This document shows positions 10,674 through 58,069 of a stretch of DNA of 64,000 nucleotides, piece after piece. Positions within the stretch are counted from its first letter, which is position 1. Each line of letters opens with the position of its first letter. The notes under the pieces are model-generated. The model was not told the DNA's origin. It made no database searches and saw only the letters and a program-made list of their open reading frames with translations. The stretch comes from an uncultured Muribaculaceae bacterium (GTDB taxonomy: Bacteria > Bacillota_I > Bacilli_A > RF39 > UBA660), in the NCBI GenBank assembly GCA_964369625.1, contig CAYJFC010000002.1, positions 5,502 through 69,501 of the forward strand, read 5' to 3'. The translations under genes were made by a program, and so were the position numbers.

Positions 10674-10696
10674 ATACTAAACTTTATTAAGTTTAT

Positions 10697-12404: not shown

Positions 12405-12433
12405 AATCTACTCCATTTAACTTTATTATATCA

Positions 12434-14197: not shown

Positions 14198-14204
14198 AAA
14201 ACTC

Positions 14205-29447: not shown

Positions 29448-29475
29448 TTTTATCACTCCTAACATAAGTATATCA

Positions 29476-30381
29476 CTAATTATGCTTTAATCCAATTTTT
29501 TTATAAACTTTAACTAGTTTTGCAACAGAACTATTATAGCAACGATTATATTCTTCTTCGTTTATTTTTTTTAATGTGTATTTTCTTATATGATTTTCAA
29601 ATAAATTTACTAAATTTATTAAAGATTCAAAATTGTCACTGCCTATTATTTTATAAAACTCAGAAAAATTACCAGTCATTTTTGAATCTATTATTATGTC
29701 TTTATAATTATTATATATAGGTCTTACTATTTCTCTAATATAACTATGAGTACTAAAATTACTATAATTATTCCAGTTATTGTTTGGCTCTAATATATAA
29801 TAATTTGATTTAATCATTTTATCTATTATATCTTCAAGCTGAATATCTACAATAGCGTCATCAAATAACGCATATTTTAATTTATTAGGTAAATATTCAT
29901 TGTATTCGTTTTCATTTTGTGAATTTATAAATCCTACTGAATAACTATATGAACTAGTTTGAACACTTGATATAACATGACAAAATTCATGTAACAGTAG
30001 ATAATCAATATAACCATACATATTAGGTTTTATGGAAAAAAACAATACTGTTAAATAGTCAAAACCACAACCAAGTATTGCATTAGTTATCTGAAATTTT
30101 CTTTTAGCGCTACTAAGTTCTATAATATTTTTATTAAATATACTCGGATCTAATAAATGAATTTCTTTGATTTTGTTTGACATAACAAATTCATTTAAAT
30201 TACCAGTATACCTAATAATATCTTCTGCTTTTTGTTCGTATTCTCTAATGCCTTCTTCATTATTATAGAAAACATATTCCAAGTCATTAATTCTTTTGTT
30301 TATTAAATTTTGATAATCAGGATATATTTTACTCAAGATATTAATTGTCCTTATTTTTATATTTTCAATATTATAATCCAT
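29476..30381 (-). CDS. Putative zinc metallopeptidase (HExxH), 301 aa.
   Basis: LLLHEFCHVISS motif. Otherwise unrecognised. Confidence 0.4.
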   Translation of the reverse strand: MDYNIENIKIRTINILSKIYPDYQNLINKRINDLEYVFYNNEEGIREYEQKAEDIIRYTGNLNEFVMSNKIKEIHLLDPSIFNKNIIELSSAKRKFQITNAILGCGFDYLTVLFFSIKPNMYGYIDYLLLHEFCHVISSVQTSSYSYSVGFINSQNENEYNEYLPNKLKYALFDDAIVDIQLEDIIDKMIKSNYYILEPNNNWNNYSNFSTHSYIREIVRPIYNNYKDIIIDSKMTGNFSEFYKIIGSDNFESLINLVNLFENHIRKYTLKKINEEEYNRCYNSSVAKLVKVYKKIGLKHN

Positions 30382-30419: not shown

Positions 30420-30944
30420 CTATATACGAACTATTTTATGTAATTTGATTATCAATTTATATAAGAAAAACATTGCAGGGATATTAAACAAAATGAAAAG
30501 AAAAGTCGCAGCACCAAAAGTAAGATTATAAACAATTAGAAAAACTGCTATATTTAAAATGAAACTTACTATTAATACTAACCTAGAGCTATTTATATAA
30601 TTTTTATTAATCTCAAAGCACAAATTTTCAACTATATTTTTATACCATATAATAGCTATTGGAATAAAAATAATAGTACAGGAAAAGAAAATTAATATTA
30701 ATATAGTTATATATTTACTTATTTTTTTTTGCGTTAAAAAATAATCCCAAGAAAAGAAAGCTAAACAAATAATAAAGGTTATTAATATAGGCATCCAGTA
30801 GTAAGCAAAATTTTCAGTAGTACTCAGAGTTAATCCTGATATAGCTTTTAAACTAATTAAAAATAGAATGCTAATGCTTATAAGTATTACAATATTTATA
30901 GTCATTAGAAGTTTATAAGTTTTTTTATTATTAATCATATACAT
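30420..30944 (-). CDS. Polytopic membrane protein (174 aa, about 5 TM).
   Basis: Hydrophobicity profile. Confidence 0.45.
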   Translation of the reverse strand: MYMINNKKTYKLLMTINIVILISISILFLISLKAISGLTLSTTENFAYYWMPILITFIICLAFFSWDYFLTQKKISKYITILILIFFSCTIIFIPIAIIWYKNIVENLCFEINKNYINSSRLVLIVSFILNIAVFLIVYNLTFGAATFLFILFNIPAMFFLYKLIIKLHKIVRI

Positions 30945-31210: not shown

Positions 31211-31567
31211 TTAATCTCCAAAAAATTTATTCATCGGTCTTGGACTAGTAGGTCCTTTTGATTTTAATATATTTGAAGCACCTTTTCCAGTTAATTCTTG
31301 TACAAAGCCTAATGCTTTTTGAGCTGTTCCTATGTGTTCTTGAATTGAATCCATATTTACATTTTTAAGTACATCACCTATTTTACCTAAACCACCAGTT
31401 ATACCGGATTTATTAATACTTTCATATTTATTCCACACACTTCTATCCTGACCATACATGTCATATAATTCATAAAATTTTTGCCAAGTCATTTCACCAT
31501 TTTTTATGTAATCTACTAATTCTGGTTTATTTTTAACAAATTCCTTAAATTCTTCTTTTTTACTCAA
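31211..31567 (-). CDS. Hypothetical protein (118 aa).
   Basis: ORF downstream of parC. No motif. Confidence 0.45.
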   Translation of the reverse strand: MSKKEEFKEFVKNKPELVDYIKNGEMTWQKFYELYDMYGQDRSVWNKYESINKSGITGGLGKIGDVLKNVNMDSIQEHIGTAQKALGFVQELTGKGASNILKSKGPTSPRPMNKFFGD

Positions 31568-36074: not shown

Positions 36075-36905
36075 TTATTTGTCAATATTGTACGTTTCTC
36101 CTGAAATTGAGTTAATATCAAAAGGTTTTTCCTCAACAGATTTAACTTTTTTCTTTGGTAAATCTATACCAGTTTTTGTAGGTTTAAGCTCTTCTGATAC
36201 TTCCTCTATTTTTTCTTCTTCTGGTTTTTTAGCAGCATACACAGAACTAAAAATTTCTGATGACTTAAATGCTGGTTTTTTTTCTTCTTCTTTATTTTCA
36301 AATATATCCATTACTTCATCAAAGTTAAGTTCTGGCAATTTAATTTCTTCCTCTACTTCATTTACTACTTCTTGAACCTTTTCTTCAATTTTTTTTGTAA
36401 CTGGTTCTATTTGTTTTTCTTCAGTTACTACAACTGGCTCTATAATTTTTTCCTCTTCCACTTCTACTGGTTTTTTTTCATCAAAAGTAGTAACTTCCAC
36501 ATTTTCTTCTTTTATTTCTACAGGTTTTTCTTCTAATTTCGTTTCTGAAACTGGTTCAAAAGCTGGCATAATAATCGTATCTGATAATTCAGCATCTTCT
36601 TTTTTTTCTTCTGTAACTGGTAAAGTTTTAGGAATTGGTGGCAATAAAATATCCACGTTTTCTGCTTTTTTTACTGGTTCAGGCTTTACTTCAGTTTCCA
36701 CTTTAACTTCATTTTTTTCTTCTTTAAAAGCTTTTTCTAAAGCTAGTTTTTCTAATTTTTTTGTTTCTTCTATTTTTTGATCTTTTTTCCCTAAAAATAA
36801 AACTAACAAAAACAAAACTACTAAAACTACTATAGCTATAATTAAATATAATGTAAAATTTTCTATATTGTATAAGTTATTAAAAAATTCTTGCATTTTA
36901 AACAC
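36075..36905 (-). CDS. N-terminally anchored low-complexity E/K/P/V-rich protein (276 aa).
   Basis: One TM helix, then a highly charged repetitive region (EEK/PVE repeats). Confidence 0.5.
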   Translation of the reverse strand: MFKMQEFFNNLYNIENFTLYLIIAIVVLVVLFLLVLFLGKKDQKIEETKKLEKLALEKAFKEEKNEVKVETEVKPEPVKKAENVDILLPPIPKTLPVTEEKKEDAELSDTIIMPAFEPVSETKLEEKPVEIKEENVEVTTFDEKKPVEVEEEKIIEPVVVTEEKQIEPVTKKIEEKVQEVVNEVEEEIKLPELNFDEVMDIFENKEEEKKPAFKSSEIFSSVYAAKKPEEEKIEEVSEELKPTKTGIDLPKKKVKSVEEKPFDINSISGETYNIDK

Positions 36906-37239: not shown

Positions 37240-37659
37240 TTAACAACTAATAATTTTTTCTACCCAAAAATAATCTTTATTCTTAAAATCACAAACAAAT
37301 AAATTTGGATTTAAATATATTTTTTCAAATATATTTTTTTTATTGATATTTGTTTTTAGAGTTAAGTGAGTTAAATGGGTTTTTAATACTAATGTTTCAT
37401 CTCTGTATTTGTTATACACTTTATGTGAATTTTTATTCATCATATAAAAATCATTATCTTTAAAATTATCAAACAAAAATTTATTTACATCATTTTTTTG
37501 AAAAGGTACCGCTATTTGTTCAAATAAATTTAATCCTAAATTTATTTCATTTTTACCCATATAATAAATATTTTCTAAAGTTTGATATAAATTATAAGGA
37601 TTATCCTTTGTTAAAATTTTAAATTCTTTATTAATATAAAAAATGTAGAAAGTTCTCAT
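37240..37659 (-). CDS. SirA-like protein (sporulation inhibitor of replication; YneE/DUF2522-like), 139 aa.
   Basis: N-terminus MRTFYIFYINKEF versus B. subtilis SirA MERHYYTYLIKEEF. C-terminus VCDFKNKDYFWVEK versus AMDFNSKRYGWLNP. Adjacent to yneF, as in B. subtilis. Confidence 0.45.
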   Translation of the reverse strand: MRTFYIFYINKEFKILTKDNPYNLYQTLENIYYMGKNEINLGLNLFEQIAVPFQKNDVNKFLFDNFKDNDFYMMNKNSHKVYNKYRDETLVLKTHLTHLTLKTNINKKNIFEKIYLNPNLFVCDFKNKDYFWVEKIISC

Positions 37660-37745: not shown

Positions 37746-38396
37746 TTACTTTTCTATTTCTACAAATCTAATTGTTTTTATTTTTTGTACTAAATTAGGT
37801 AAATCATTTCCATTAACTGGTGTTGATGCTATTTTATCTACTACATCCATTCCAGCTATAACTTTACCAAAAGATGCATATAAACCATCTAATGATGTTG
37901 CATCTTGGTGAACAATGAAAAATTGTGATGATGCTGAATCCATTGTTTCAGCAGTATCTGGATTACCACCACGTCTTGCCATTGATAATACTCCTCTTTC
38001 ATGAGATAAATTATTTTCTATACCATTTAATTCAAATTCACCTTTAATATTTTCATCAGATCCTCCTGTTCCATTACCTAGAGGGTCTCCTGTTTGAATC
38101 ATAAAGTTTTCAATAACTCTATGAAAAATTATGCCATCATAAAATTTTTCATCAATTAGTTTTTGCATATTAGCAACAGTTATTGGTGCCACTTCAGGAT
38201 ATAACTGTGCAATAATTATATCATCGTTTTCCATTTCAATTTTAATATAATTTGTAATTTCTTCAGTTTCTTTAAATTCCATATCTTCTATATTCCCTTC
38301 TGTAATATAAGTTACTTCTTCAGTACCACACCCAGTTATAAAAATTAAACTAAATGCAGTTATTATTGTTAATATTTTTTTCATTTTTTCCTCCAT
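37746..38396 (-). CDS. Cyclophilin-type peptidyl-prolyl isomerase lipoprotein.
   Basis: Lipobox LIFITGC. Cyclophilin motifs FHRVIENFMIQTGDP, GVLSMAR, SQFFIV. Confidence 0.8.
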   Translation of the reverse strand: MEEKMKKILTIITAFSLIFITGCGTEEVTYITEGNIEDMEFKETEEITNYIKIEMENDDIIIAQLYPEVAPITVANMQKLIDEKFYDGIIFHRVIENFMIQTGDPLGNGTGGSDENIKGEFELNGIENNLSHERGVLSMARRGGNPDTAETMDSASSQFFIVHQDATSLDGLYASFGKVIAGMDVVDKIASTPVNGNDLPNLVQKIKTIRFVEIEK

Positions 38397-40198
38397 ATTT
38401 TATCTAAAACAGATCTTATTTGATCTTTATTAAATGGCTTTGCTATATAATCTTCAAAACCCATATCAATATATTTGTTTTTCGAATTAGATGTTGCATC
38501 TGCAGTAAGAGCTACTACAGGTATATTAAATCCATCTATTTCTTTAAGTTTATAAAGTGTTTGCTCCCCATTTAATTCCGGCATCATTATATCCATTAAT
38601 ATTAAATCGTAATTATTACCATTTTTTATTAATTCTAAACATTCTATTCCCGATAAAGAATCTTCAATAGTTAAATTCAAATCTTTAAGAGCTCTTCTAG
38701 CCACTTTAATATTAAGTTCATTATCATCTACTATTAAAACCTTTTTATTATAATATAATTGACATTCTAATTCATTAGTATCTTTCTTTTCAATAACTGG
38801 AGCTTCCATTATGCTTATTTTTTGAGGTATTTGAACAACAAACAAAGATCCATGACCATAACTAGACTTAACATTTATTTTTCCATTTAAATGTTTAACT
38901 AACTTTTGAGTAATAGCAAGACCAAGTCCTGTTCCTTCAACAGTGGAGTTTTTCTCAGCATCGAGTCTTTCAAATTTTGTAAAAAGTTTACTAATATTTT
39001 CTTCTTTTATTCCTTTACCAGTATCTTCAACACTAAGAATCAATAAACATTTATTATTATTATTTATACATCTAAGAGATATTTTAACTGATCCCGATTC
39101 AGTATATTTATACGCATTAGATATCAAATTATTAACAACTTGCTTCACATGATTTTTATCGCCTATAAGTTCATATGGAATATCTGGTGCATATGTTACT
39201 GATACTTTTATATCTTTATTAGCAATTCTAATTTCATTAACTTTCATTACACTATCTACTACTTCAATGATATTGTAATTTAATTCAACTCTTTCAAGTT
39301 TGTCACTTTCTATTTTTGAAATATCTATAATATTTCCAACTATTTCTAAAAGAGTATTAGAAGCATTTACTATATCAGAAGTATCTTCTTTTAATTCTTT
39401 AGGCAATATTTTATTTTCTAACATATCTTGTGATAAACCTACTATTGCATTTAGAGGTGTTCTTATTTCATGGCTCATACTCGATAAAAAATCCGACTTT
39501 GCTAGATTAGCTTTTTCTGCAGTTTTTTTCGCTTTATTTAATTGCTCTATCATTTTAACATCAGGATTTTCTATTGTATGGTACATTATGAATGTTACAA
39601 ACGTTAAAGGAGTTGAAACAAATACTAAAGTAGGAACATATATTCTTAATAGTAAAGTTACTATTGCTAAAAAAAGCAACACATATATTGGAATATATTG
39701 TTTAATAACTTTTCTTTTACTATTTAATATTGTTAATACTATTGTCAAAACTAAATACCAAGCAATAAATCCGTACATTAAGTATATAGATAAACCACTT
39801 GCGGTCATAGTATTGTTATCATTTATTAATTCAAATGGCAAAAATTGTGTAACTATAATAAAAATTGTATTTATTAAAGTCATCCATTTGGCTAAAGTTT
39901 TATAATTTTTTTCTTTTTTACAACTCAAATTATATACATATAAGAATAGCGTAGCACACCAAATTAACACTAATATCATCGCACATCTATTGAAAATTTC
40001 AATTAAAGTGCTACCAGGAAAAAAATAATTACAAAATACAGTTAAACTTTCCGCTACAGCAATTAATAAACTTGCTATTAATATATTCGAATACAATTTC
40101 GTCTCATTATTTACTAATTTTTCTTTAGCAAAAAATAAAATTGCAACAAATATAGCTATGCACACACTTATAACTGGATACATTAAATTATAATACAT
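38381..40198 (-). CDS. Hybrid sensor histidine kinase (6 TM, HisKA, HATPase, C-terminal receiver), 605 aa.
   Basis: H-box SHEIRTPLNAI. G-boxes DTGKGI, GTGLGL. REC domain with DIMMPELNG. Perfect SD AGGAGG. Confidence 0.8.
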   Translation of the reverse strand: MYYNLMYPVISVCIAIFVAILFFAKEKLVNNETKLYSNILIASLLIAVAESLTVFCNYFFPGSTLIEIFNRCAMILVLIWCATLFLYVYNLSCKKEKNYKTLAKWMTLINTIFIIVTQFLPFELINDNNTMTASGLSIYLMYGFIAWYLVLTIVLTILNSKRKVIKQYIPIYVLLFLAIVTLLLRIYVPTLVFVSTPLTFVTFIMYHTIENPDVKMIEQLNKAKKTAEKANLAKSDFLSSMSHEIRTPLNAIVGLSQDMLENKILPKELKEDTSDIVNASNTLLEIVGNIIDISKIESDKLERVELNYNIIEVVDSVMKVNEIRIANKDIKVSVTYAPDIPYELIGDKNHVKQVVNNLISNAYKYTESGSVKISLRCINNNNKCLLILSVEDTGKGIKEENISKLFTKFERLDAEKNSTVEGTGLGLAITQKLVKHLNGKINVKSSYGHGSLFVVQIPQKISIMEAPVIEKKDTNELECQLYYNKKVLIVDDNELNIKVARRALKDLNLTIEDSLSGIECLELIKNGNNYDLILMDIMMPELNGEQTLYKLKEIDGFNIPVVALTADATSNSKNKYIDMGFEDYIAKPFNKDQIRSVLDKIWRKK

Positions 40199-40210
40199 TT
40201 TATTCCTCCT

Positions 40211-40825
40211 TTAATTACATAAATCTGTAATATCAATTTTTACAACTTTATAATTGTTTTTTACCCCGCATATGGACATATATGCGGTATTTATTTTTTT
40301 TGTAGTTATATACAAATTATTAAATTCAATTAAATTAGATAAATAATCTAGTTCAATTTCATTAGCAGGATATGTTAATCCTTTTCCGTTATATTTTATA
40401 AATGATTCTTTGATTGTCCAAACTTTAGTAAGAAACTCCAAATCATTAATAAAATCATTATATTTATTGATATCATTTACGGACAACATGTAATTTATCA
40501 TATTATCCGTAAAATCAGAAACATTTTCTATATCTATACCAATATCATTATTATCTATACCAACTACTACAAATCCATTAGTATGACTAATATTAAATTT
40601 AATATCTGAATTTATAAATTCAGGTTTTTCATTAGAGTTAGTAATATAATCTACTTCAAAGCCAACTAATTTTTTTAATAACAAATAGGCTACCACACAA
40701 TTTATTTTATCCGATAACTTGATATAAGACATGAATTTTTTCATTCTGTATACTGGCATATCTACAGCTTTATTTAATAGGTCAACATATTTGTTATAAT
40801 CATCAATTTCACAATAATATATCAT
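40211..40825 (-). CDS. Sfp-type 4'-phosphopantetheinyl transferase (204 aa). Start codon abuts the NRPS stop.
   Basis: PPTase motifs GIDIE and WTIKESFIKYNGKGL. TAAATG junction with the NRPS gene. Confidence 0.7.
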   Translation of the reverse strand: MIYYCEIDDYNKYVDLLNKAVDMPVYRMKKFMSYIKLSDKINCVVAYLLLKKLVGFEVDYITNSNEKPEFINSDIKFNISHTNGFVVVGIDNNDIGIDIENVSDFTDNMINYMLSVNDINKYNDFINDLEFLTKVWTIKESFIKYNGKGLTYPANEIELDYLSNLIEFNNLYITTKKINTAYMSICGVKNNYKVVKIDITDLCN

Positions 40826-43800
40826 TTATTTAAACCTTAAATTTTTTTTATTTAACTCTTTTTGAGTGATTTCATTTGATATAGAATTTGTTGTTTGATT
40901 ATTCATAAAGCCATTTAAATATTTATAAACTATAACACTATCTCCCTCTTTATTGTCTAATAATTTATTAGCTATTATCATAAATTCTTCATCTTTTAAA
41001 ATTTTATAATTTATTTTTTTATAATCTAAATAATCAAATAAACCTTCAGTATATGGATCAAATAAATGATAAGTTTTTAATTTATTTTGGTCTTCAGATA
41101 ATTCAACAACCGCTTGTGCTATTTTATCAACCGGAGCTGTTTGAATCTTTACATTTACTGCTGATTCTGGAACTACTCCAATTTTTTGAATCATATTAAC
41201 AATCATTTGAAATGCACTTGTATCTTCATTTATTTGAAATTTATTATCATAACTTCTACTACCTATATAACCTGTTCTATATATACTGTAATTCAAATTT
41301 TTAGATTCAAACATTTTTAATAATTCTTCAGCTTTATATTTACTTAACATATAGGCATCATGAGAATAATCTTGACCAATATTTAAATCATTTTCTGTGA
41401 AATTAACATTGTTTATTGTTTGCTCAGAAACATTTATTCCTGAAACTGTAATAGTAGACATATGTTCTAAACTTGCACCTATTTCAAGTGCCATTTTTGA
41501 CATATTATATATTCCGTCAACATTATCTTTTTTTGCTTCTTCTACTGAAGCAAAATGACTAACATTAGCAGCGCAATTTATTATTCTTCCTACATTATTT
41601 TTGACATTTAATAAATCACTTTCTCCTAAACCTAAATTGGTTTTAGAAATATCTCCAGTAATAACTCTAATTCTACTATTATCTAGCTCTATTTTATCAT
41701 CAAAATAAAATTTTAATGCTTTTTTAAATTTTTCTACATCCCTTATCAAACAATAAATATTACATTCTTTGTTATTAATAATATATTCTAAAATATGACT
41801 TCCTAAATATCCTCCCGCTCCCGTTAATAAGATATCATTTTTGTTATTATTAACACCTGGAACTATTGAGGCGATATCATATTCTTTTAAATCTATATTT
41901 TTATATGTTTTTCTATTTTCTAAAACTTCAACCATATCATATATTGTTGGATTTTTTGCAAAATCTACCGGACCTAGTGTTTTTTTCATTATTTTAGATA
42001 TATCAGAAATAATATCTATTAATATTCTTGAGTCACCTCCAAATGATGAAAAAGTTGTATGTATGCCAACTGGTTTATAATTAAATTGTTTTTCCCAGAT
42101 ATTACAAATTATTTTTTGCAACTCTGTTTCAGGTGCTATATAAGAAGCTTTTAAAGATTCATACAAATCAAATTCAGGTAATCTTTTTTTATCTACTTTC
42201 CCTGATGCAGTTAACGGCATTTTATCTATTTTGACAAATATTTGTGGTATCATATTACTTTTTAATTTTTTACTCAGGTTTCTTCTAATATCTTCGTCAT
42301 CTATCGTTTTATCACCTTCATAAAAACATAATAAATATTTGTGATTGTTTGTTTCTTCTACTCTAACTGCAGCTAGTTTTATATCACTATATCCATTAAC
42401 AGCTATTTCAATTTCTCCAAGTTCTATACGAACACCATTTATTTTAATTTGATTATCTCTTCTTCCACAAAAAACAAGTTCATTATTTGTATTTAAACAA
42501 GCAAAATCCCCTGATTTATACGACATATTACCTGATTTTTTATCTCTTAAAAACACTTTTTTATTTTCTTCTGGATTATTTATATAACCTGCTGAAACTC
42601 CTGGGCCAATAATCACCATTTCCCCAATGTTATTAGGTGGTAAAACATTGTTGCATTCATCAATTAAATATATTTTGAAATTATTAGCAGGTCTTCCTAT
42701 AGATATATTATCAACTTCTACTTGTTTAATTGTATTAAATACAGTTGTTTCTGTTGGACCATATGTATTATAAACTTTAGGATTGCCACATTTATCATTT
42801 ATTAAATTTAAAATTTCATTATCAAACTTCTCTCCACCCAGTATAATAACATCTACATTTTTATACGATTCATCATTTATATTTTTTAAATTCATCTTTA
42901 TTGTAGTAGGAGTTTGCATTAAAACTGTTTTATTTTCACTTTTTACTATTTGCGCTAATTTTGATGAACTTGATAATTCCTCATAGGTAGGTAACACCAA
43001 TTTTTTCCCAGATAATAAAGGAGACATTACATCCATTAAAAATGCATCAAAATTTATTTTTGTTAAACTAATAAAAGTTTTAGCGTCACCTGTTAAATCA
43101 GAAACGTTGTTAAACATATTAACAACTCCAACATCTTTTATTAAAGATATTTTAGGATTACCTGTTGAGCCAGAGGTATGCAGGGCACAAAATATCGAGT
43201 CTGAATTTTTTCTAACTCTTTGATAAGAAATGTTATTTTCTAAACCACAATAAGTTCTCATATCAAATTTATTTAAGTTAAAATTAATATAATTACTACC
43301 ATAATGAATTACTGTATGCGCTTTAATATCTTCTAACATGGTTGTTATTTTTTCTTCAGGTAATTCAGCTTCATCTAAAAGAAAATATGCTTTACCTATT
43401 TTACTAATAGCAAGCAAACTTATTATTGTATAATAACTTTTATCGCCAACAACTGGTACGATATCCATATTGTCTAAATTAAGTTTACTTAGTTCATTTG
43501 CTAAATTATTAGCATCATTATTTATTTGCTCATAAGTATATTCTTTATCCTTAAATTTTATAGCTACCTCATTTGGATTATTAAATACAATATCATCAAA
43601 AATATCTAATACTGTTTTATTTATTTCATATGATAAATTATTATTTAATTCTTCATATTTTTTTAAATCTTTTGAAATTAATAACTGAATATCAGATAAC
43701 TTAATATTTGGATTTTTAATAACTTGTTTTGACACTAAAATAATTCTTTGTAAAATATCATTCACTTCTTCTTCATTAAACAAATCTGTTTTATAATCAA

Positions 43801-44959
43801 AATTCATTCTAAAACCAGTGCCATCACGATCATCTATATTAATAACCATTTCATTTAACAAGCATTCAGTAAAATACCACCCTGTTTCAAATTCGATATC
43901 AGTATTATTTTTAACTATTTGAGAAGGTTGATATGAAACTGCAACGTCATATAATTTTCCACCATATTTATGTTTTTCCTTTAAATCTTTTTGTAAAGCA
44001 GTAAATGGATATGATTGTCTTTTTAGTAAATTAAATTTTTCTTTTTTGATATATTTTGAAAATTCTGAAAATGTCAAATTATCATCTATAGTTACTTGAA
44101 AAGGTTGCGTATTAACAAACATTCCAAAAATTTGTCTTTCCTTCGCATTAGTTCTATTTAAAACAGGTGATCCAACTGATACATTTTTATTATTATTAAT
44201 TTTTCTTAAATATATTAATATTATTTTTTCAAAAAACAACGCTTCAGATATACTATTTTCACTACAAAAAGTTTTTATATCATTTGAAAATTCTTTTCCC
44301 AAATCTTTCGTATATCTTTTAGCAGCAATATTATTACTATCGTTTATAGCAAATTTTGATACAACGGGTTCACTTTGATACAAATTATCATAAGTTTCTT
44401 TATCTTTATCAAATTGTTTTTCTAAATACTGTTTTTCTCTGTCTATTAGCATTTCATACGAATATAATTTTTCAATTTCATATTCTTCATTTTTAAGTAA
44501 TTTCGAATATATATCTATTATTTTTTGACAAGTTAAAGCAGCAGTATAACCATCTGCTATTAAATGACTAACTTTCCAGTAAACACCGAATTTTCTATCT
44601 GATAACTTTAATAATTTGAAGTTAATTAATTCATCGTTCACAAAAATTTCTTTAGCCCATTTGTGGTATAAATTTTGTCTTTCTTGTTCAGATATATCAC
44701 TTAAATCAAGTTTTTCGAAATTTTGAAATTCGTAGTTTGAAAAAAATTGATAAACTTCTCCATTTTCTTCTTTTATCTTTATTCTATAAGCATCATATAA
44801 TTCAAACAACTTATTAACTGTTCTATTTAATTTTTCAAAATCTAATTCAATATTATCTACAAATAATTGTCCTGCTAAATTACCTATTTCTTGGCTTTTA
44901 GCAAATTTCATTGACTCCCAAATATTTTTTTGGGAGTTAGTTAATTCATATTTTTTCAT
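40826..44959 (-). CDS. Single-module non-ribosomal peptide synthetase, C-A-T-R (1377 aa).
   Basis: C motif SHLIADG. A-domain cores LHTSGSTGNPK, NTYGPTETTV, GEMVIIGPGVSAGY, YKSGDFA, GRRDNQIKINGVRIELGEIE, PLTASGKVDKKRL. T motif FGGDS. R-domain TGAGGYLGSH and YMLSKYKAE. Confidence 0.9.
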   Translation of the reverse strand: MKKYELTNSQKNIWESMKFAKSQEIGNLAGQLFVDNIELDFEKLNRTVNKLFELYDAYRIKIKEENGEVYQFFSNYEFQNFEKLDLSDISEQERQNLYHKWAKEIFVNDELINFKLLKLSDRKFGVYWKVSHLIADGYTAALTCQKIIDIYSKLLKNEEYEIEKLYSYEMLIDREKQYLEKQFDKDKETYDNLYQSEPVVSKFAINDSNNIAAKRYTKDLGKEFSNDIKTFCSENSISEALFFEKIILIYLRKINNNKNVSVGSPVLNRTNAKERQIFGMFVNTQPFQVTIDDNLTFSEFSKYIKKEKFNLLKRQSYPFTALQKDLKEKHKYGGKLYDVAVSYQPSQIVKNNTDIEFETGWYFTECLLNEMVINIDDRDGTGFRMNFDYKTDLFNEEEVNDILQRIILVSKQVIKNPNIKLSDIQLLISKDLKKYEELNNNLSYEINKTVLDIFDDIVFNNPNEVAIKFKDKEYTYEQINNDANNLANELSKLNLDNMDIVPVVGDKSYYTIISLLAISKIGKAYFLLDEAELPEEKITTMLEDIKAHTVIHYGSNYINFNLNKFDMRTYCGLENNISYQRVRKNSDSIFCALHTSGSTGNPKISLIKDVGVVNMFNNVSDLTGDAKTFISLTKINFDAFLMDVMSPLLSGKKLVLPTYEELSSSSKLAQIVKSENKTVLMQTPTTIKMNLKNINDESYKNVDVIILGGEKFDNEILNLINDKCGNPKVYNTYGPTETTVFNTIKQVEVDNISIGRPANNFKIYLIDECNNVLPPNNIGEMVIIGPGVSAGYINNPEENKKVFLRDKKSGNMSYKSGDFACLNTNNELVFCGRRDNQIKINGVRIELGEIEIAVNGYSDIKLAAVRVEETNNHKYLLCFYEGDKTIDDEDIRRNLSKKLKSNMIPQIFVKIDKMPLTASGKVDKKRLPEFDLYESLKASYIAPETELQKIICNIWEKQFNYKPVGIHTTFSSFGGDSRILIDIISDISKIMKKTLGPVDFAKNPTIYDMVEVLENRKTYKNIDLKEYDIASIVPGVNNNKNDILLTGAGGYLGSHILEYIINNKECNIYCLIRDVEKFKKALKFYFDDKIELDNSRIRVITGDISKTNLGLGESDLLNVKNNVGRIINCAANVSHFASVEEAKKDNVDGIYNMSKMALEIGASLEHMSTITVSGINVSEQTINNVNFTENDLNIGQDYSHDAYMLSKYKAEELLKMFESKNLNYSIYRTGYIGSRSYDNKFQINEDTSAFQMIVNMIQKIGVVPESAVNVKIQTAPVDKIAQAVVELSEDQNKLKTYHLFDPYTEGLFDYLDYKKINYKILKDEEFMIIANKLLDNKEGDSVIVYKYLNGFMNNQTTNSISNEITQKELNKKNLRFK

Positions 44960-45091
44960 AATTACCCTATTCTATTTACTACACTAATATAAATATATCA
45001 TAATTCGACATTTTTTTAAAGATAATTAATATAATAAATTTATTTTTCCAAATATTGGCTTAGCAATTTGTTTTATTATATATTACAATAC

Positions 45092-45103
45092 AAACAAAGG
45101 TTT
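45092..45103. promoter_or_regulatory. Candidate LexA (SOS) box AAACAAAGGTTT overlapping the dinB RBS region.
   Basis: AAAC-N4-GTTT inverted repeat. Resembles GAAC-N4-GTTC/T Cheo boxes and the box upstream of lexA. Confidence 0.35.
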
Positions 45104-45113
45104 GGTGAATAAA

Positions 45114-46361
45114 ATGAATAGAAGCATCTTATGTATTGATTTAAAAAGTTTTTATGCTTTTGTAGAATGTAACAAAAGAGGTTTAAATCCTTATAAAACC
45201 CCTTTAGTTGTAGCAAATATTAAACAAGGTAATGGTTCCATTACCTTAGCAATAACTCCATATATGAAAAAATTAGGAATTAAATCAAGATCAAGATTAT
45301 TTGAAATACCAAGTAATATTAATTATATAACAGCTTCACCTAGAATGAGTTTGTATATAGAAAAAAGTAAAGAAGTCATAGATATTTATCTAGATTTTGT
45401 ATCTAAAGATGACTTACACGTATATTCCATAGATGAAGCATTTCTTGATGTAACAGATTATTTAAAATATTATAACAAAAATGAGTACGAAATTGCTAAA
45501 ATGATATTAAAAAATGTAAAGAAAAAAACTGGGCTTGATGCTACATGCGGAATAGGCCCTAACTTATTTTTAGCTAAAGTAGCTTTAGATACCGAAGCTA
45601 AAAATAATAAAGATAATATAGCAAAATGGAGTTATGATGATATTCAAAAAAAGCTATGGTCCATTACTCCCCTTTCAAAAATGTGGGGAATTGGCTTTAG
45701 AATAGAAAAAAAATTAAATAATCTTGGGATAATAACTGTTGGTGATTTAGCGGTATTTGACAAAGACAAACTAAAAAAATTATATGGTGTTATTGGCGAA
45801 GAATTACATGAACACGCTAATGGCATTGATGAAAGCGTCATTAGTAAACATGAATATCGCAGTAAATCAAGCACTATTAGCAATAGTCAAATATTATTTA
45901 AGGATTATTATTATAACAATGTACAATTAATCATTAAGGAAATGCTTGAAACACTAACATATAGATTAAGAAATAATAATAAAATGTGTGGTAATATAGG
46001 TCTTGGAATAACTTACTCTAAAGATATTAGCGACTCATTTTATAGAGTATTAAAATTAGATACTTATACAGATGATATAAATCACTTATTTAAATATACT
46101 TTGATAATTCTTGATAAATACATAAAAGACTATCCTATTAGAAAAGTATCTATTTCACTTGGCAATTTATCAAATAAATGTGGTTTTCAATTATCTTTAT
46201 TTGATAATAATACTTTATATGAAAAAAATAGCAAATTAAATACCTCTCTTGATATTTTAAAAAATAAATATAATAAAAATATTGTAAATAATGCAACATC
46301 ACTATTATCTGACTCTACTCAAATTGATAGGAATAATAAAATAGGAGGTCACTGGGCATAA
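45114..46361 (+). CDS. Y-family DNA polymerase (DinB/UvrX-like).
   Basis: N-terminus ILCIDLKSFYAFVE (compare ILHVDMDAFFASVE). Catalytic SIDEAFLDV. ATG at 45114 is preferred over the track TTG. Confidence 0.8.
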   Translation: MNRSILCIDLKSFYAFVECNKRGLNPYKTPLVVANIKQGNGSITLAITPYMKKLGIKSRSRLFEIPSNINYITASPRMSLYIEKSKEVIDIYLDFVSKDDLHVYSIDEAFLDVTDYLKYYNKNEYEIAKMILKNVKKKTGLDATCGIGPNLFLAKVALDTEAKNNKDNIAKWSYDDIQKKLWSITPLSKMWGIGFRIEKKLNNLGIITVGDLAVFDKDKLKKLYGVIGEELHEHANGIDESVISKHEYRSKSSTISNSQILFKDYYYNNVQLIIKEMLETLTYRLRNNNKMCGNIGLGITYSKDISDSFYRVLKLDTYTDDINHLFKYTLIILDKYIKDYPIRKVSISLGNLSNKCGFQLSLFDNNTLYEKNSKLNTSLDILKNKYNKNIVNNATSLLSDSTQIDRNNKIGGHWA

Positions 46362-46672
46362 TGAAAAGAAAAATGATAAAATGGATTGCTTTTGATTCTG
46401 TTATAAATTCAAAAAAGGTAGTTGCAGATTTATCTAATAAAAAAATGAATAAGCCAATGCCTATTTTAAGCAATGAACAATTTGAAGAAATAGAATATAA
46501 TTTACTTAAAGCATTTAGTACAAAAGCTAAAATTAAAATAATATATTACCAAGATAATAAATGGTTAGAAATTACCAGTCATATTAAACATATTGACAAT
46601 ATAAAAAAAATTATCATTACAGATAATTTCAGTTTATATTTTCATCAAATTATTAGTATTAAATTAGTTTAA
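46361..46672 (+). CDS. YolD-like protein (UmuD-analog partner of Y-family polymerases), 103 aa.
   Basis: Size and position overlapping dinB by 1 nt (TAATG), as in uvrX-yolD / yqjW-yqjX pairs. Confidence 0.55.
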   Translation: MKRKMIKWIAFDSVINSKKVVADLSNKKMNKPMPILSNEQFEEIEYNLLKAFSTKAKIKIIYYQDNKWLEITSHIKHIDNIKKIIITDNFSLYFHQIISIKLV

Positions 46673-47791
46673 TTTATTTAAGATATAATCACATATTAAT
46701 TCAGATGAATCTTTTTTTGAATTATTAATTAATCTTCTTTTATATTTGGATAATACATTAGGTTTTAAAAATTCATTGATATGCTTATTTAAATTAACTT
46801 TTCTTCTTGAAAAAGTACCAAATCCTTCTTTTTTAATATATTTAATATTATATCTTTCTTGTCCGCCTAAACCAGGAATTAAAATCATTGGCAAATTAAA
46901 CCCCATACATTCGGTAATTGTTGCTCCTCCGGGTTTAGTTATAACAAAATCTGATATATTCATTAAATTGTAGATATCAGTAGTAAAACCAAGAACTACT
47001 ACATTAGTTAATTTATTTTTTTGAACAAAAGCATCACATTTATTTTTTAGTTCTTCATTTTTTCCACTTATAAAGATTATATTTGCATTACGCTGCGCAA
47101 TTACTACATTTTTAAAATATTCATAGTAAGTAAGTGAACCTGCAGTGCTTCCGCCAAAAAATAAAATAACTGGCATATTATTATTGACTTTATATTTATT
47201 TTTTATAAGTTTTCTATGTTTTAGATTACGCATTTTATCACTTTGAAGTGGTATTCCATAAGCGAATATTTTGTTTTTTTCAACACCAAATTTAATAAGT
47301 TCTTCTTTAACAATATTATTCGCAACAAAAAACACATCTTTTTTTCTATGGTGTGATAACCATTCACTATGTGAAGCATAATCTGTTAAAATTGTAGATA
47401 TTTTAGAACTAATTATTTTTTTCTCATTATAATATGATGCTAAAGTTGCACCATAAAAATGAGTTGCGATTACTACATCGGGATCAAACTTTACAAAAGC
47501 ATCCCTAATTTCTGAATTATCAAAAAACAATTTAGAAATCTTTTTTTGAGATAAAGATGTTAGCTTATTATCAATAAGTTCATAACCAGCATTATACAAA
47601 GTTTCTGTTCGATATTTTATAACGAAATCAAATACTTTAAAACTGGCTTTGCCTAAAATATTTGCAAAATTCGTTATATCTAACATCTCTACTAATACAT
47701 TTTTATTTTTACTTAATTTATCATATATATTATTTGCAACACTTTTATGACCAGAGCCATACATTGCATACACAATTAAAACTTTTTTCAT
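46664..47791 (-). CDS. MGDG-synthase/UgtP-like diacylglycerol glycosyltransferase (375 aa).
   Basis: N-terminus KVLIVYAMYGSGHKSVA. C-terminal GT-B domain (GGS...FITKPGGATITE). Confidence 0.7.
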   Translation of the reverse strand: MKKVLIVYAMYGSGHKSVANNIYDKLSKNKNVLVEMLDITNFANILGKASFKVFDFVIKYRTETLYNAGYELIDNKLTSLSQKKISKLFFDNSEIRDAFVKFDPDVVIATHFYGATLASYYNEKKIISSKISTILTDYASHSEWLSHHRKKDVFFVANNIVKEELIKFGVEKNKIFAYGIPLQSDKMRNLKHRKLIKNKYKVNNNMPVILFFGGSTAGSLTYYEYFKNVVIAQRNANIIFISGKNEELKNKCDAFVQKNKLTNVVVLGFTTDIYNLMNISDFVITKPGGATITECMGFNLPMILIPGLGGQERYNIKYIKKEGFGTFSRRKVNLNKHINEFLKPNVLSKYKRRLINNSKKDSSELICDYILNKLN

Positions 47792-47835
47792 ATACTCTCC
47801 ATAATATATATATCATATTTTATATTTTTAATCAA

Positions 47836-47979
47836 TTAATTATTGTATGCATATAAGTCAGTATCCATATTTTTTACTGAATTCAAATCCTCAAATCTAG
47901 CATTTACTAATAAAACACAAATTAATATAAATATATAAAATAAAATTACTCCTGTGTACTCTTTAATCATTTTTTCCAT
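47836..47979 (-). CDS. Possible small membrane protein (47 aa).
   Basis: ATG at 47979 with SD GAAGG. One TM (VILFYIFILICVLLV). Confidence 0.3.
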   Translation of the reverse strand: MEKMIKEYTGVILFYIFILICVLLVNARFEDLNSVKNMDTDLYAYNN

Positions 47980-48010
47980 GTTATACCTTCTTTCACATTT
48001 ATAATAACAC

Positions 48011-48022
48011 AAACAATTGTTC
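48011..48022. promoter_or_regulatory. Candidate LexA autoregulatory box AAACAATTGTTC upstream of lexA.
   Basis: One mismatch from GAAC-N4-GTTC. About 25 bp upstream of the lexA -35. Confidence 0.4.
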
Positions 48023-48048
48023 GTGTAAATATACAATTAAACAAATGT

Positions 48049-48077
48049 TTGACTTTTTACAAATTTTATTGTAAAAT
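48049..48077 (+). promoter_or_regulatory. lexA promoter: TTGACT, 17 nt spacer, TAAAAT.
   Basis: Consensus-like hexamers with 17-nt spacing. SD AGGTGAGAG. Confidence 0.5.
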
Positions 48078-48084
48078 TAATTAG

Positions 48085-48705
48085 GTGAGAGATATGATAA
48101 CAAAAAGACAAACTGAAGTTTTAGACTTCATAAAAAAATATATTGCATCAAAAGGATTTGCTCCTTCTATTAGAGATATATGTGCAGGGTTAGGATTAAA
48201 TAGTCCTGCTACAGCATTTTCCCACGTAAAAAAATTAGAAGCAAACAATTATATTAAAACTTCTAATAATAAATCTAGAACAATTGAAATATTAGTTGAT
48301 AATGAATATATCGAAAAAGATGATAGTATTGTTAAAGTTCCCCTACTTGGAAAAATTACTGCAGGCAGTCCAATAGAAGCTATAGAAAAACCCGATGAAT
48401 TTTTTGATTTACCAGCCTCTTTGGTACCAATCAATTCAGAAGTATTCACTTTACATGTATCCGGTGAATCAATGATTAATAGAGGTATTTATGACAATGA
48501 TTTTGTTATAATAAAAAAACAAAGTATAGCTAAAAATGGCGAAATAGTTGTTGCTATGAATGATAACAATGAAGTAACACTTAAGACTTTTTATAAAGAA
48601 AGTGATCATTTTAGATTACAACCAGAAAATGATACTATGTCTCCTATTATTTTAAAAAATGTTACAATACTTGGAATAGCTGTTGGACTTTATAGAAAAA
48701 TATAA
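48085..48705 (+). CDS. lexA: LexA repressor.
   Basis: 206 aa. N-terminal wHTH. S24 peptidase motifs GESM (Ser) and cleavage-site region. Confidence 0.85.
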   Translation: MRDMITKRQTEVLDFIKKYIASKGFAPSIRDICAGLGLNSPATAFSHVKKLEANNYIKTSNNKSRTIEILVDNEYIEKDDSIVKVPLLGKITAGSPIEAIEKPDEFFDLPASLVPINSEVFTLHVSGESMINRGIYDNDFVIIKKQSIAKNGEIVVAMNDNNEVTLKTFYKESDHFRLQPENDTMSPIILKNVTILGIAVGLYRKI

Positions 48706-53587: not shown

Positions 53588-53630
53588 AAAAAAATCCTTT
53601 CAACAATATTGTGAAAGGATTAATTCATTT

Positions 53631-54032: not shown

Positions 54033-54085
54033 TTTTTCACCTCTTTTCTTTTTTATAATTAAACTACACACTTATAGTTAATTTA

Positions 54086-55399: not shown

Positions 55400-55472
55400 T
55401 GTCTCACCTACTAATAAAATTATATCACATAACAAAGAAAAAAAACTAGTTTTTTCTAGTTTTATGTTTACA

Positions 55473-56910: not shown

Positions 56911-57004
56911 CTATTTTATTTTATACTTATAAATAAAAATATTTTGTCACTTATAGGAAATAAAATATGTAAAATTTCATAAAAAAAGAAGATATAATAT
57001 CTTC

Positions 57005-58057: not shown

Positions 58058-58069
58058 AATGTATCCTCC

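Follow-up and report, generated by a model that had tools for sequence, protein, structure and literature searches.

The window, the whole 64-kb stretch of DNA analysed here, carries on its minus strand a nonribosomal peptide synthetase (NRPS) gene, followed by genes for a phosphopantetheinyl transferase (PPTase), a hybrid sensor histidine kinase and a peptidyl-prolyl isomerase (PPIase) lipoprotein. Open reading frames and junction sequences indicate that the four, the last three encoding the PPTase, a 7-TM hybrid kinase and the lipoprotein, probably form one operon with the NRPS gene first. The features are:

44960..45101, no strand assigned: AT-rich intergenic region of 142 nt, separating the NRPS gene from a divergent Y-family polymerase gene
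40826..44959, minus strand: single-module C-A-T-R NRPS, 1377 aa (open reading frame; Pfam and NCBIfam domains; core motifs)
43670..44956, minus strand: condensation (C) domain, residues 2-430 (Pfam PF00668, 3.5e-57)
42140..43585, minus strand: adenylation (A) domain, about residues 459-940 (Pfam PF00501; motifs A3-A10)
41924..42109, minus strand: thiolation (T, PCP) domain, residues 951-1012 (Pfam PF00550, PP-binding, 2.3e-07)
40829..41833, minus strand: terminal thioester reductase (R) domain, residues 1043-1377 (NAD_binding_4, TIGR01746)
40211..40825, minus strand: Sfp-type 4'-phosphopantetheinyl transferase, 204 aa (Pfam ACPS, 41 bits; cut-off 25)
38381..40198, minus strand: hybrid sensor histidine kinase, 605 aa (Pfam HisKA, HATPase_c, Response_reg)
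39554..40198, minus strand: 7-TM sensor domain, residues 1-215 (hydropathy; AF2 model)
38819..39502, minus strand: HisKA and HATPase_c core, residues 233-460 (Pfam; catalytic boxes)
38405..38740, minus strand: C-terminal receiver domain, residues 487-598 (Pfam PF00072, 5.6e-23)
37746..38396, minus strand: cyclophilin-type PPIase lipoprotein (Pfam Pro_isomerase, 5.6e-43; signal peptide ending in Cys)

The NRPS stop codon abuts the PPTase start codon (TAA|ATG, gap 0 nt, no overlap), confirming the tightly coupled, dedicated Sfp-type PPTase of the preliminary description. The PPTase has the Sfp-type motifs GIDI (96) and WTIKESFIK (136), and its top NCBIfam match is AusB, under that model's cut-off. 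The kinase gene follows after 12 nt and is preceded by an AGGAGG ribosome-binding site. It had been described as lying upstream of the NRPS; the shared orientation and tight linkage stand, but the kinase comes third in the operon and lies downstream. The likely start of the cyclophilin gene (ATG at position 38384) makes it overlap the kinase stop, and the gene is probably co-transcribed with the kinase. It is not kept in related cassettes and is missing from the related locus L001, where a homologous PPTase occupies the same position as in the window. The region 44960..45101 is the presumed operon promoter; promoter-like matches there are no commoner than in shuffled sequence, and no LexA-box-like site was found in it.

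All the core C, A, T and R motifs reported earlier for the 1377-aa protein were borne out by Pfam domains and motif positions, and chance cannot produce a match across several domains like this one. The C3 motif reads S131-H-L-I-A-D-G; Ser replaces the first His, and the catalytic His132 and Asp136 are present and invariant across 8 family members. The A domain (AMP-binding match at residues 459-792, Pfam, 1.4e-48) contains A3 TSGSTGNPK (595), A5 NTYGPTE (731), A7 YKSGD (814), A8 GRRDNQIKINGVRIE (832) and A10 SGKVDK (919), and the T domain contains GGDS (974) with Ser977. The R domain (NAD_binding_4 match at residues 1045-1284, Pfam, 1.6e-38) carries TGAGGYLG (1046) and Y1203-M-L-S-K1207. It aligns with the PCP-R structure 6vtj (8.5e-28) and the AusA reductase 4f6c (1.4e-19); Y1203 and K1207 match the Tyr and Lys of both, and the upstream S-T is also kept. 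By sequence the reductase retains the residues for NAD(P)H binding as well as Thr, Tyr and Lys, and loss of the Tyr/Lys pair, raised in the preliminary description as a possible objection, is excluded. Among 5.8 billion proteins, a single homologue of the NRPS reaches 45% identity.

A degenerate A-domain pocket, the other objection raised, is excluded as well. Alignment to GrsA-PheA, which returned GrsA-PheA's own code as a control, gave the intact specificity code DAMMIGTVFK, and 9/10 positions are shared with the 45%-identical homologue. This hydrophobic code marks a pocket of the alpha-amino-acid type and is presumably closest to a Leu code among published ones. Across the cassette family the codes differ, being Leu-like, Gly-like, His-like or Val-like. 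Since the pocket is intact and the reductase complete, reductive release of an aldehyde or alcohol is the expected chemistry, in agreement with that part of the earlier prediction of an N-acyl-amino aldehyde or alcohol. The C domain invoked for the acyl group is a starter by position only, and profile scores do not separate its predicted subtype: the LCL references BacC (182 bits) and TycC6 (165) outscore the lipo-initiation starters RzmA-Cs (134) and SrfAA (126), so that N-acylation is no more than plausible. Self-condensation to a pyrazinone precursor is possible. Within the 64-kb window, the surroundings of the NRPS include no gene for an acyl-CoA ligase or ACP; this and the LCL leaning of the C domain speak against the receptor reading developed below.

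Several characterised enzymes resemble this NRPS. MxcG, the myxochelin synthetase of Stigmatella and Myxococcus, has the same single-module C-A-T-R architecture and also releases its product reductively; its NCBIfam model aligns with residues 3-1299 at 332 bits, far short of the equivalog threshold (2300). Lys is the amino acid that MxcG activates, and the enzyme depends on a DHB-loaded aryl carrier protein, whereas the pocket here is hydrophobic and the window encodes no A, T or C partner. The Staphylococcus aureusimine/phevalin pair AusA/AusB is likewise a Firmicute R-terminated NRPS followed by a dedicated Sfp-type PPTase, and supplies the best NCBIfam matches (490 and 52 bits, below the cut-offs of 2500 and 225). 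Assignment of the NRPS as an AusA or MxcG equivalog was rejected on these scores. Unlike the single-module protein here, AusA has two modules (A-T-C-A-T-R) and builds its pyrazinones from two amino acids, and we know of no kinase in the two-gene ausAB unit. R-terminated NRPSs also occur in anaerobic gut Firmicutes (Guo et al. 2017; ruminopeptin, Schneider et al.), where their reported products are dipeptide aldehydes, which were isolated as pyrazinones and are regarded as the active metabolites; these enzymes are dimodular (PMC12327764), the window NRPS single-module. One gut-metagenome example, the C-A-T-C-A-T-R protein P0004, is ~30% identical to the window NRPS, and its locus (L091) has no adjacent kinase.

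The kinase has intact H (SHEIRTP), G1 (DTGKGI) and G2 (GTGLGL) boxes, and its receiver retains all DD, D, T and K residues; the protein has no Hpt domain. Its core gives strong partial NCBIfam matches to LuxQ-, TorS- and BarA-type hybrid kinases. Hydropathy predicts about seven transmembrane helices at the N-terminus, which form a 7-helix bundle in the AF2 model (pLDDT 90.7). This sensor domain has no significant Pfam match and belongs to a family of at least 753 clusters that lacks a Pfam model. Beyond the kinase's own, no further receiver domain was found in the 64-kb window.

The position of the kinase is a family trait. In every relative found with an N-terminal C domain, a single A domain and a terminal R domain (8/8, 27-45% identity), the gene for a polytopic sensor kinase comes directly downstream. 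The loci are the window, L001, L002, L003/L004, L005, L006, L038 and L092; NRPS and kinase are separated by -13 to +84 nt, except where the kinase comes after the PPTase. As a control, none of 52 other NRPS reading frames of at least 900 aa (loci L036-L091) has a kinase within 3 kb downstream, and this set includes a dimodular C-A-T-C-A-T-R NRPS equally similar to the window NRPS (~30% identity). This is a small sample, the 8 NRPS loci representing about 4 independent lineages. Four group B loci share the flanking genes HtrA and Tex, so synteny in that group is partly inherited. The linkage is real and conserved, and since every relative found has the kinase, the pair probably works as one unit.

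The linked kinases fall into three sensor types (A, B and C), all polytopic with 6-8 predicted helices. The sensors of groups A and C are short-looped; group B has ~120 residues between the fifth and sixth predicted helices. Homology between type A and HisKA_7TM sensors is undetectable by hhalign, and the group B sensor has neither a sensor-region BLASTP match to type A nor a sensor Pfam model. Because the types are dissimilar where tested, no one receptor is conserved throughout, and the linkage may have a different function. Groups A and C comprise hybrid or orphan kinases, and in group B the last gene of the cassette encodes a receiver-HD-GYP protein (a c-di-GMP phosphodiesterase) with intact motifs. 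Where an output is visible, in group B, it is therefore not transcriptional. No related cassette has an adjacent gene for a DNA-binding regulator, and no cassette contains a transporter or resistance gene.

Sensor A also occurs beside other enzymes. Of the 7 sensor-A contexts, the five other readable ones and L001_HK1 have the kinase gene 7-135 nt 3' of a gene for a long-chain acyl-CoA-ligase-like protein (L093, L094, L097) or an AGPAT/PlsC-like acyltransferase (L095, L096, L001). Compared with the sensor of L001_HK2, the other kinase linked to an NRPS and PPTase, the window sensor shows 48.8% identity; against sensors of the ligase- or acyltransferase-linked kinases it shows only 25.7-33%. 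The reverse holds for the kinase core and receiver, which are 61-64% identical to the ligase- and acyltransferase-linked kinases and only 52% and 44% to L001_HK2. By these comparisons the sensor domain tracks the NRPS partner and the kinase core does not. This co-variation, together with 8/8 against 0/52, excludes chance adjacency.

A real and conserved linkage argues for a functional pair of synthase and sensor rather than a simple switch by which the kinase controls the NRPS. We tentatively favour, at slightly less than an even chance, a synthase-receptor cassette comparable to LuxM/LuxN, CqsA/CqsS or Rpf. In LuxM/LuxN and CqsA/CqsS (Vibrio) and LqsA/LqsS (Legionella) the synthase gene adjoins a hybrid kinase, as in the window, and the receptors share its layout: a polytopic sensor lacking any large periplasmic domain, then HisKA, HATPase and receiver. 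The window differs in that its synthase is an NRPS rather than a LuxM/AinS or CqsA (PLP) enzyme, its sensor has no Pfam model, LuxU-like or LuxO-like partners are not identified, and the host is a Gram-positive spore-former. Group B resembles the Xanthomonas Rpf/DSF system in combining a synthase, a polytopic kinase and a receiver-HD-GYP protein, and in L003 and L004 an acyl-CoA ligase-like gene adjoins the NRPS, giving the parts list of RpfF/RpfC/RpfG/RpfB. An NRPS replaces the crotonase-type RpfF, and the window cassette has a fused receiver and no HD-GYP protein. R-terminated NRPS-like enzymes are known to make signals: HamD/HamF and PvfC/MgoA yield diffusible autoinducers derived from amino alcohols or aldehydes, and a starter C domain adds an acyl group to a related intermediate (PMC5878181, whose text on these signals mentions no receptor). 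Their products (valdiazen, leudiazen and the PVF signals of Burkholderia and Pseudomonas) are proteobacterial, unlike the window; HamD is an A-T-R protein with a free-standing C domain, and the diazeniumdiolate needs tailoring enzymes.

The partners of sensor A raise a different prospect, a membrane-lipid homeostasis module, to which we give a low probability: the 7-TM kinase, like DesK, would sense membrane state or free fatty acids, the linked enzyme would remodel lipids, and the NRPS product would be a membrane lipid (an N-acyl amino alcohol or aldehyde) rather than a diffusible signal. The ligase-like and PlsC-like partners look like the two halves of Aas (acyl-ACP synthetase / lysophospholipid acyltransferase), the Aas model being among the NCBIfam matches, and lipid-recycling partners of this type fit a membrane-lipid sensor as well as a signal receptor. 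The short-looped intramembrane 7-helix bundle and the ligase-like gene in L003 and L004 also agree with it. However, the varied A-domain codes are a better match for specific small molecules than for a bulk lipid, group B has an HD-GYP phosphodiesterase as its output, and a sensor that co-varies with the type of partner enzyme is not generic. To our knowledge, NRPSs are not a route to bulk lipids.

We consider similarly unlikely the model of the preliminary description, in which the kinase perceives an external cue and turns on NRPS expression, the product being a reactive aldehyde or pyrazinone whose targets are other cells or host proteases. Autoregulated operons with their own two-component genes are common, and the co-oriented, tightly linked and conserved kinase would suit such a model, as would the gut-Firmicute aldehydes and pyrazinones. 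Signal-dependent expression nevertheless gains little support from a kinase that lies downstream as third gene of the operon, from cassettes in which no DNA-binding response regulator is adjacent and group B uses HD-GYP, and from a window with no second receiver; dissimilar sensor types would, moreover, all need to control one kind of enzyme. The model is partly compatible with the synthase-receptor reading, because autoinduction would give signal-dependent expression. We regard as quite improbable that the NRPS product, an N-acyl amino aldehyde or pyrazinone, is secreted as a protease inhibitor or antibiotic, with the kinase an immunity or damage sensor or merely co-transcribed. Peptide aldehydes act as protease inhibitors, a gene upstream of the NRPS and divergent from it encodes an HtrA-like serine protease at each group B locus, and the NRPS-PPTase pairing is AusAB-like; the activity ascribed to the peptide aldehydes of related gut NRPSs points the same way (PMC12327764). 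A single amino acid aldehyde is, however, a weak scaffold for a specific inhibitor, the cassettes carry no export or resistance function of the kinds noted above, and pure coincidence is excluded by the counts and by sensor co-variation.

We propose, inferring everything past domain content from synteny, that the synthase-receptor cassette would operate as follows. The PPTase would bring the NRPS carrier domain into the holo form, the A domain would load one aliphatic amino acid, the N-terminal C domain would N-acylate it from an acyl-CoA or acyl-ACP donor, and the R domain would release an N-acyl amino aldehyde or alcohol reductively; a less likely route joins two loaded units into a dipeptide aldehyde, which then closes to a pyrazinone ring. 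The co-transcribed kinase, which comparative genomics suggests is the functional partner of the synthetase, would be the membrane-embedded receptor for this hydrophobic product, an autocrine or quorum signal, with phosphate passing to the kinase's own receiver and then onward to downstream partners. The enzyme itself is of a known kind, and what is new is the comparative linkage of NRPS and kinase, in which the two may be a signal maker and its receptor.

The NRPS lies on the minus strand, as does nearly every gene of the window, which has a GC content of about 25%. It is the first of four tightly packed genes, spaced as follows.

44959-40826, minus strand: NRPS ORF, 1377 aa
40825-40211, minus strand: PPTase ORF, 204 aa, its ATG abutting the NRPS TAA
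40198-38381, minus strand: hybrid kinase ORF, 605 aa, 12 nt past the PPTase gene, with AGGAGG in front
38384 (likely ATG) to 37746 (ORF end), minus strand: cyclophilin-type lipoprotein gene, its start overlapping the kinase stop

The direct junction of NRPS stop and PPTase start bears out the coupling of the two genes read in the preliminary description. The kinase, which that description placed upstream of the NRPS, is downstream in coding-strand gene order, as the third gene of the same operon. A 142-nt intergenic region lies 5′ of the NRPS gene and is followed by a divergent SOS-type module (45102-48705, plus strand) encoding a Y-family polymerase, YolD and, farther out, LexA. SOS control of the NRPS was considered and rejected, as its promoter region holds no Cheo-box-like site and the sole near-match found (AAACAATTGTTC at 48011) stands in front of lexA. 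Promoter and terminator scans gave matches as frequently in shuffled sequence and are uninformative. A perfect palindrome with a 9-bp stem (CCGCATATG...CATATGCGG, 40266-40287) sits in the 3′-terminal part of the PPTase coding sequence; it scored as a terminator on the antisense (plus) strand only, and no T-run follows it on the coding strand. Recent horizontal acquisition was also rejected, since the GC content of the operon (0.23-0.26) is that of the window and gives no compositional sign of recent transfer.

The core motifs of C, A, T and R domains that had been read in the single 1377-aa protein are present by both Pfam and motif inspection, at the following residues.

2-430: Condensation (PF00668, 3.5e-57)
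459-792: AMP-binding
951-1012: PP-binding (PF00550, 31 bits, cut-off 20.8), GGDS at 974
1045-1284: NAD_binding_4 reductase (PF07993, 1.6e-38)

In the C3 motif (SHLIADG) Ser replaces the first His; all 8 homologues keep the catalytic pair, His132 and Asp136. The A domain carries core motifs A3-A10 (TSGSTGNPK, NTYGPTE, YKSGD, GRRDNQIKINGVRIE and SGKVDK), and the NRPS scores 292 bits against TIGR01733, slightly below the cut-off of 317. The preliminary description had left two points to alignment, the reductase Tyr/Lys pair and the state of the A-domain pocket. The reductase has TGAGGYLG and Y1203xxxK1207 (YMLSK), giving the full catalytic Thr/Tyr/Lys set, and YMLSK aligns onto the Tyr/Lys of the AusA reductase (4f6c) and of the 6vtj PCP-R structure. 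The pocket is intact, with the code DAMMIGTVFK. The PPTase matches ACPS (PF01648, 41 bits, cut-off 25) and has GIDI at 96 and WTIKESFIK at 136. An enzyme was called Sfp-type if it had an ACPS-superfamily fold, about 200-240 aa, and the motifs (V/I)G(I/V)D and (F/W)(S/C/T)xKE(S/A)xxK; all are found in the 204-aa protein, in agreement with its earlier assignment. Judged by these motifs, the NRPS is an intact C-A-T-R enzyme with a dedicated Sfp-type PPTase, predicted to activate an amino acid and to release its product in an NAD(P)H-dependent manner.

The specificity code was read from an alignment to GrsA-PheA, whose published code, DAWTIAAICK, was reproduced as a control. The one close homologue (P0002, 45% identity) has DAMMIGSVFK, keeping 9 of the 10 positions. 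Since Asp235 and Lys517 of the amino-acid pocket are kept, an alpha-amino acid is the expected substrate. The nearest entry of the Stachelhaus table is presumably the Leu code DAFMLGMVFK, which shares 7 of 10 positions with the window code; the substrate is therefore likely to be a hydrophobic aliphatic amino acid, an assignment made by comparing codes and not by a predictor. The C domain, described earlier as a starter, is one by its N-terminal position only; a profile of 8 family C domains gives the highest scores to LCL references (BacC 182 and TycC6 165 bits), with the lipo-initiation starters RzmA-Cs (134) and SrfAA (126) not far behind and CDA-C1 much lower (61). N-acylation by this domain may reasonably be supposed. 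The NRPS would load one aliphatic amino acid, probably N-acylate it, and reductively release an aldehyde or alcohol; alternatively, it would condense two units into a pyrazinone precursor. Valdiazen and PVF provide a precedent for NRPS signals released by an R domain (PMC5878181). No further C, A or T domain, reductase or acyl-CoA-ligase-like gene was found elsewhere in the 64-kb window.

The best NCBIfam matches of the NRPS are AusA (490 bits, cut-off 2500) and MxcG (332 bits, cut-off 2300), and that of the PPTase is AusB (52 bits, cut-off 225). Equivalence to AusA/AusB was rejected, as both scores are below cut-off and AusA is A-T-C-A-T-R, as against C-A-T-R here. The MxcG alignment spans nearly the whole window NRPS, yet scores far under the equivalog cut-off; equivalence was rejected here too, MxcG requiring DHB-activating and aryl-carrier partners and the window offering no A, T or C domain beyond those of the NRPS. 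By these scores the NRPS resembles AusA and MxcG and belongs to neither family. The NRPS search of 5.8 billion clustered proteins recovered the protein itself and one relative of 45% identity, all others being at about 30% or lower; the window housekeeping proteins checked are singletons at 90% identity too. The profile of 8 C domains retrieved fragments and Pseudomonas C domains only from the same database, with no new family member. A metagenome scan with a two-sequence NRPS alignment gave mostly generic NRPSs, the one true relative being that of locus L038 and the rest serving as controls. On sequence similarity, the window enzyme is a very divergent member of an already known enzyme kind.

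Gene neighbourhoods were compared for every retrievable NRPS of the same general layout (C domain at the N-terminus, a single A domain, R domain at the end), giving 8 loci in three groups.

Gene order in the NRPS-kinase cassettes.
Group A, window: NRPS, PPTase, 7-TM hybrid kinase
Group A, L001 (locus of P0002): PlsC-like acyltransferase, hybrid kinase 1, NRPS, PPTase, hybrid kinase 2
Group B, L002, L003/L004, L005 and L006: divergent HtrA-like protease, NRPS, kinase, receiver-HD-GYP, Tex
Group C, L038: NRPS, then kinase with HisKA_7TM sensor (Pfam 3e-37), its first base directly following the NRPS gene
Group C, L092: C-A-T-C-T-R NRPS, then HisKA_7TM-PAS kinase

A polytopic kinase directly follows the NRPS or its PPTase in 8 of 8 loci, a small sample in which several loci share ancestry. 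No kinase lies within 3 kb downstream of any of 52 other NRPS ORFs (at least 900 aa, about 40 loci from the same searches), a control set in which one dimodular enzyme, a C-A-T-C-A-T-R NRPS encoded by a mobile element, is equally similar to the window NRPS (about 30% identity). The adjacency of NRPS and kinase is conserved and non-random, and pure coincidence is excluded. We infer that the kinase is a functional partner of the NRPS. In the literature searched, no paper couples a C-A-T-R NRPS to a kinase or describes acyl-handling enzymes as partners of the 7-TM kinase family.

Group B kinases are of 660-680 aa and have a polytopic N-terminus unlike type A, the sensor type of the window kinase; the L005 contig ends inside the kinase sensor. 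The HDIGK, HHE and GYP motifs of the group B HD-GYP regulators are intact. L003/L004 carry an additional acyl-CoA-ligase-like gene. The HtrA-like serine protease, with Trypsin_2 and PDZ domains where the gene is complete, is encoded divergently upstream in every group B cassette.

L002: 7046-7825
L003: 1288-2418
L004: 4426-5556
L005: 1-741
L006: 4344-5465

A Tex gene lies downstream in L002, L003 and L006, the group B contigs that reach far enough. Common descent of the loci could explain these neighbours, as could a connection of the protease with a product of the peptide-aldehyde type. In L092 the C-A-T-C-T-R enzyme (8001-13835) has a second C and T without a second A, which would imply either one A domain serving the two carriers or loading in trans.

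The window kinase has HisKA, HATPase_c and Response_reg domains (Pfam) with SHEIRTP, DTGKGI, GTGLGL and DD/LILMD/LTA/AKP intact; co-operonic with the NRPS, it is apparently functional. No further receiver domain or kinase was found in the 64-kb window, and its downstream phosphorelay partners could be encoded elsewhere. Its sensor of about 225 residues (39554-40198, minus strand) has no Pfam match, and none to HisKA_7TM (PF16927) even at E<=10. The NRPS-linked kinases of L038 and L092 do match PF16927; assignment of the window kinase to that family was rejected, hhalign against these two sensors giving a probability of 0.2%. BLASTP aligned type A and group B kinases in the catalytic regions only, and Pfam offers no model for the sensor of group B. 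The linked sensors are of three types, all multi-pass membrane domains, with short loops in groups A and C. A common origin of the sensors, or one conserved receptor fold, was rejected, as no homology was detected between type A and HisKA_7TM and no sensor match between type A and group B.

The sensor-A family (related proteins P0084-P0336) comprises at least 753 clusters at 50% identity and E<=1e-3, with 331 at E<=1e-10, most of about 600 aa. Named members come from metagenome-assembled genomes of uncultured 'Bacilli', Ca. Faecisoma and Erysipelotrichaceae, and from Mycoplasma-labelled ones. An AlphaFold (AF2) model of the sensor, of high confidence (pLDDT 90.7), is a seven-helix fold in which a short hairpin separates helices 4 and 5. 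Among solved structures it comes closest to GPCR 7-TM bundles (TM-scores 0.60-0.67, weak E-values), a generic resemblance to which we attach little weight. Outside NRPS loci, the sensor-A kinase gene lies 9-135 nt 3′ of a gene for an acyl-handling enzyme in all five readable contexts.

L093, 6144-9884: long-chain acyl-CoA-ligase-like gene, then sensor-A kinase
L094, 5982-9863: long-chain acyl-CoA-ligase-like gene, then sensor-A kinase
L097, 6163-9110: long-chain acyl-CoA-ligase-like gene, then sensor-A kinase
L095, 3459-5196: AGPAT/PlsC-like acyltransferase gene, then sensor-A kinase
L096, 1845-4894: AGPAT/PlsC-like acyltransferase gene, then sensor-A kinase

Kinase 1 of L001 has the same pattern, 7 nt after the PlsC-like gene. 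Comparison with the window kinase reveals that the sensor tracks the partner enzyme; the signalling core presumably tracks organismal relatedness.

Identity of sensor-A kinases to the window kinase, with partner enzyme.
L001 kinase 2, NRPS and PPTase: sensor 48.8%, core 52.3%, receiver 43.9%
L001 kinase 1, PlsC-like: sensor 33.0%, core 49.8%, receiver 48.4%
L093 kinase, acyl-CoA-ligase-like: sensor 25.7%, core 61.0%, receiver 61.0%
L096 kinase, PlsC-like: sensor 30.0%, core 61.9%, receiver 64.2%
L095 kinase (partial), PlsC-like: sensor 33.3%

Some of these kinase genes are damaged. In the ligase-paired kinases of L094 (8001-9863) and L097 (8001-9110) the His that accepts the phosphate is gone (MTQEARNP and MSAEVRKP versus MSHEIRTP) and extra stops occur; these are possibly pseudokinases or decaying genes. 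A single in-frame TAA interrupts otherwise intact, full-length hybrid kinase genes in L093 (about 9138-9140) and L096 (about 3944-3946). That of L096 aligns to a Glu of the window kinase, which suggests a change of GAA to TAA. The two stops could be assembly errors, recent pseudogenisation or an on/off switch. Genetic code 4 was rejected as the cause of the split genes, since the codon that interrupts the frames is TAA, and since TGA serves as a stop in the window.

The host is, from the gene content of the window, an anaerobic endospore-former, on the following evidence.

52811-59314, minus strand: ftsA-ftsZ-spoIIGA-sigE...sigG cluster, sporulation genes
31211-31567, minus strand: YlbD-like coat protein
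37240-37659, minus strand: weak SirA-like match (E 7.6e-4, below cut-off), directly after the operon
12443-16464, minus strand: HydABC-type electron-bifurcating [FeFe] hydrogenase (large subunit, Nuo51-like subunit, adjacent small ORF)

The hydrogenase genes are consistent with a strict anaerobe. A 276-aa protein (36075-36905, minus strand) combines an N-terminal membrane anchor with a long Glu/Lys/Pro/Val-rich low-complexity tail and has no Pfam match; the same lack of a match applies to the ORFs at 27819-29465 (548 aa), 54086-55435 (449 aa), 29476-30381 and 30420-30944.

We propose, with somewhat less than even confidence, that NRPS and kinase form a synthase-receptor pair, the product of the NRPS being the predicted ligand that would be perceived by the membrane-embedded sensor of the kinase. 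This is favoured because the NRPS stays constant across dissimilar sensor types, and because the sensor co-varies with the type of partner enzyme. The sensors are intramembrane domains that would suit hydrophobic ligands, and where an output can be seen it is an HD-GYP protein, not a transcription factor directed at the NRPS; both points argue the same way. So does the variation of A-domain pockets among cassettes (Leu-, Gly-, His- and Val-like), which a diversified set of signals would lead one to expect. The main rival, which we regard as unlikely, casts the kinase as a sensor of membrane-lipid homeostasis, and draws on the ligase-like and PlsC-like partners of sensor-A kinases, which look like Aas-type lipid-recycling enzymes. 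Regulation of NRPS expression by the kinase, the model of the preliminary description, is weakened by the downstream position of the kinase gene and by the lack of an adjoining DNA-binding regulator; we give it a low probability, although an autoinduction loop would reconcile it with a synthase-receptor pair. That the NRPS makes a secreted inhibitor, the kinase being unrelated or of an immunity type, seems improbable.

Synthase-receptor logic is known from LuxM/LuxN, CqsA/CqsS and Rpf. In the Lux and Cqs systems, as here, a (putative) synthase gene adjoins that of a polytopic hybrid kinase; the window synthase is an NRPS, non-homologous to LuxM/AinS and CqsA, and the likeness is therefore one of logic and not of membership. 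The NRPS-kinase cassette would be a variation on such known synthase-sensor systems. Small-molecule signalling of Gram-positive anaerobes is generally held to rely mainly on peptides (Agr, Com, RRNPP), and few receptors are known for valdiazen, PVF and similar R-domain-released NRPS signals. It is possible, though doubtful, that the cassettes represent an unrecognised signalling class of anaerobic low-GC Firmicutes, in which the autoinducer, a lipo-amino aldehyde or alcohol or a compound of the pyrazinone type, comes from a single-module C-A-T-R NRPS and is detected by the downstream polytopic kinase, and in which the family of the window kinase pairs with varied acyl-activating or acyl-transferring 'synthases' (NRPS, ligase-like, PlsC-like). 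If so, Gram-positive bacteria would have their own equivalent of the LuxMN, CqsAS and Rpf systems, and the cassette of a spore-former could feed c-di-GMP signalling or sporulation decisions.

If conserved, such a pair of minimal NRPS and membrane kinase would offer a testable ligand-receptor hypothesis and a rule for genome mining, namely an N-terminal-C, single-A, R-terminated NRPS adjoining a polytopic kinase. It would also be a first functional handle on a large, Pfam-less 7-TM kinase family that occurs in uncultured Firmicutes of gut and environmental origin. Should the kinase prove not to be the receptor, the linkage still ties NRPS products to the signal transduction of their own producer, which differs from a product acting on hosts or competitors only.
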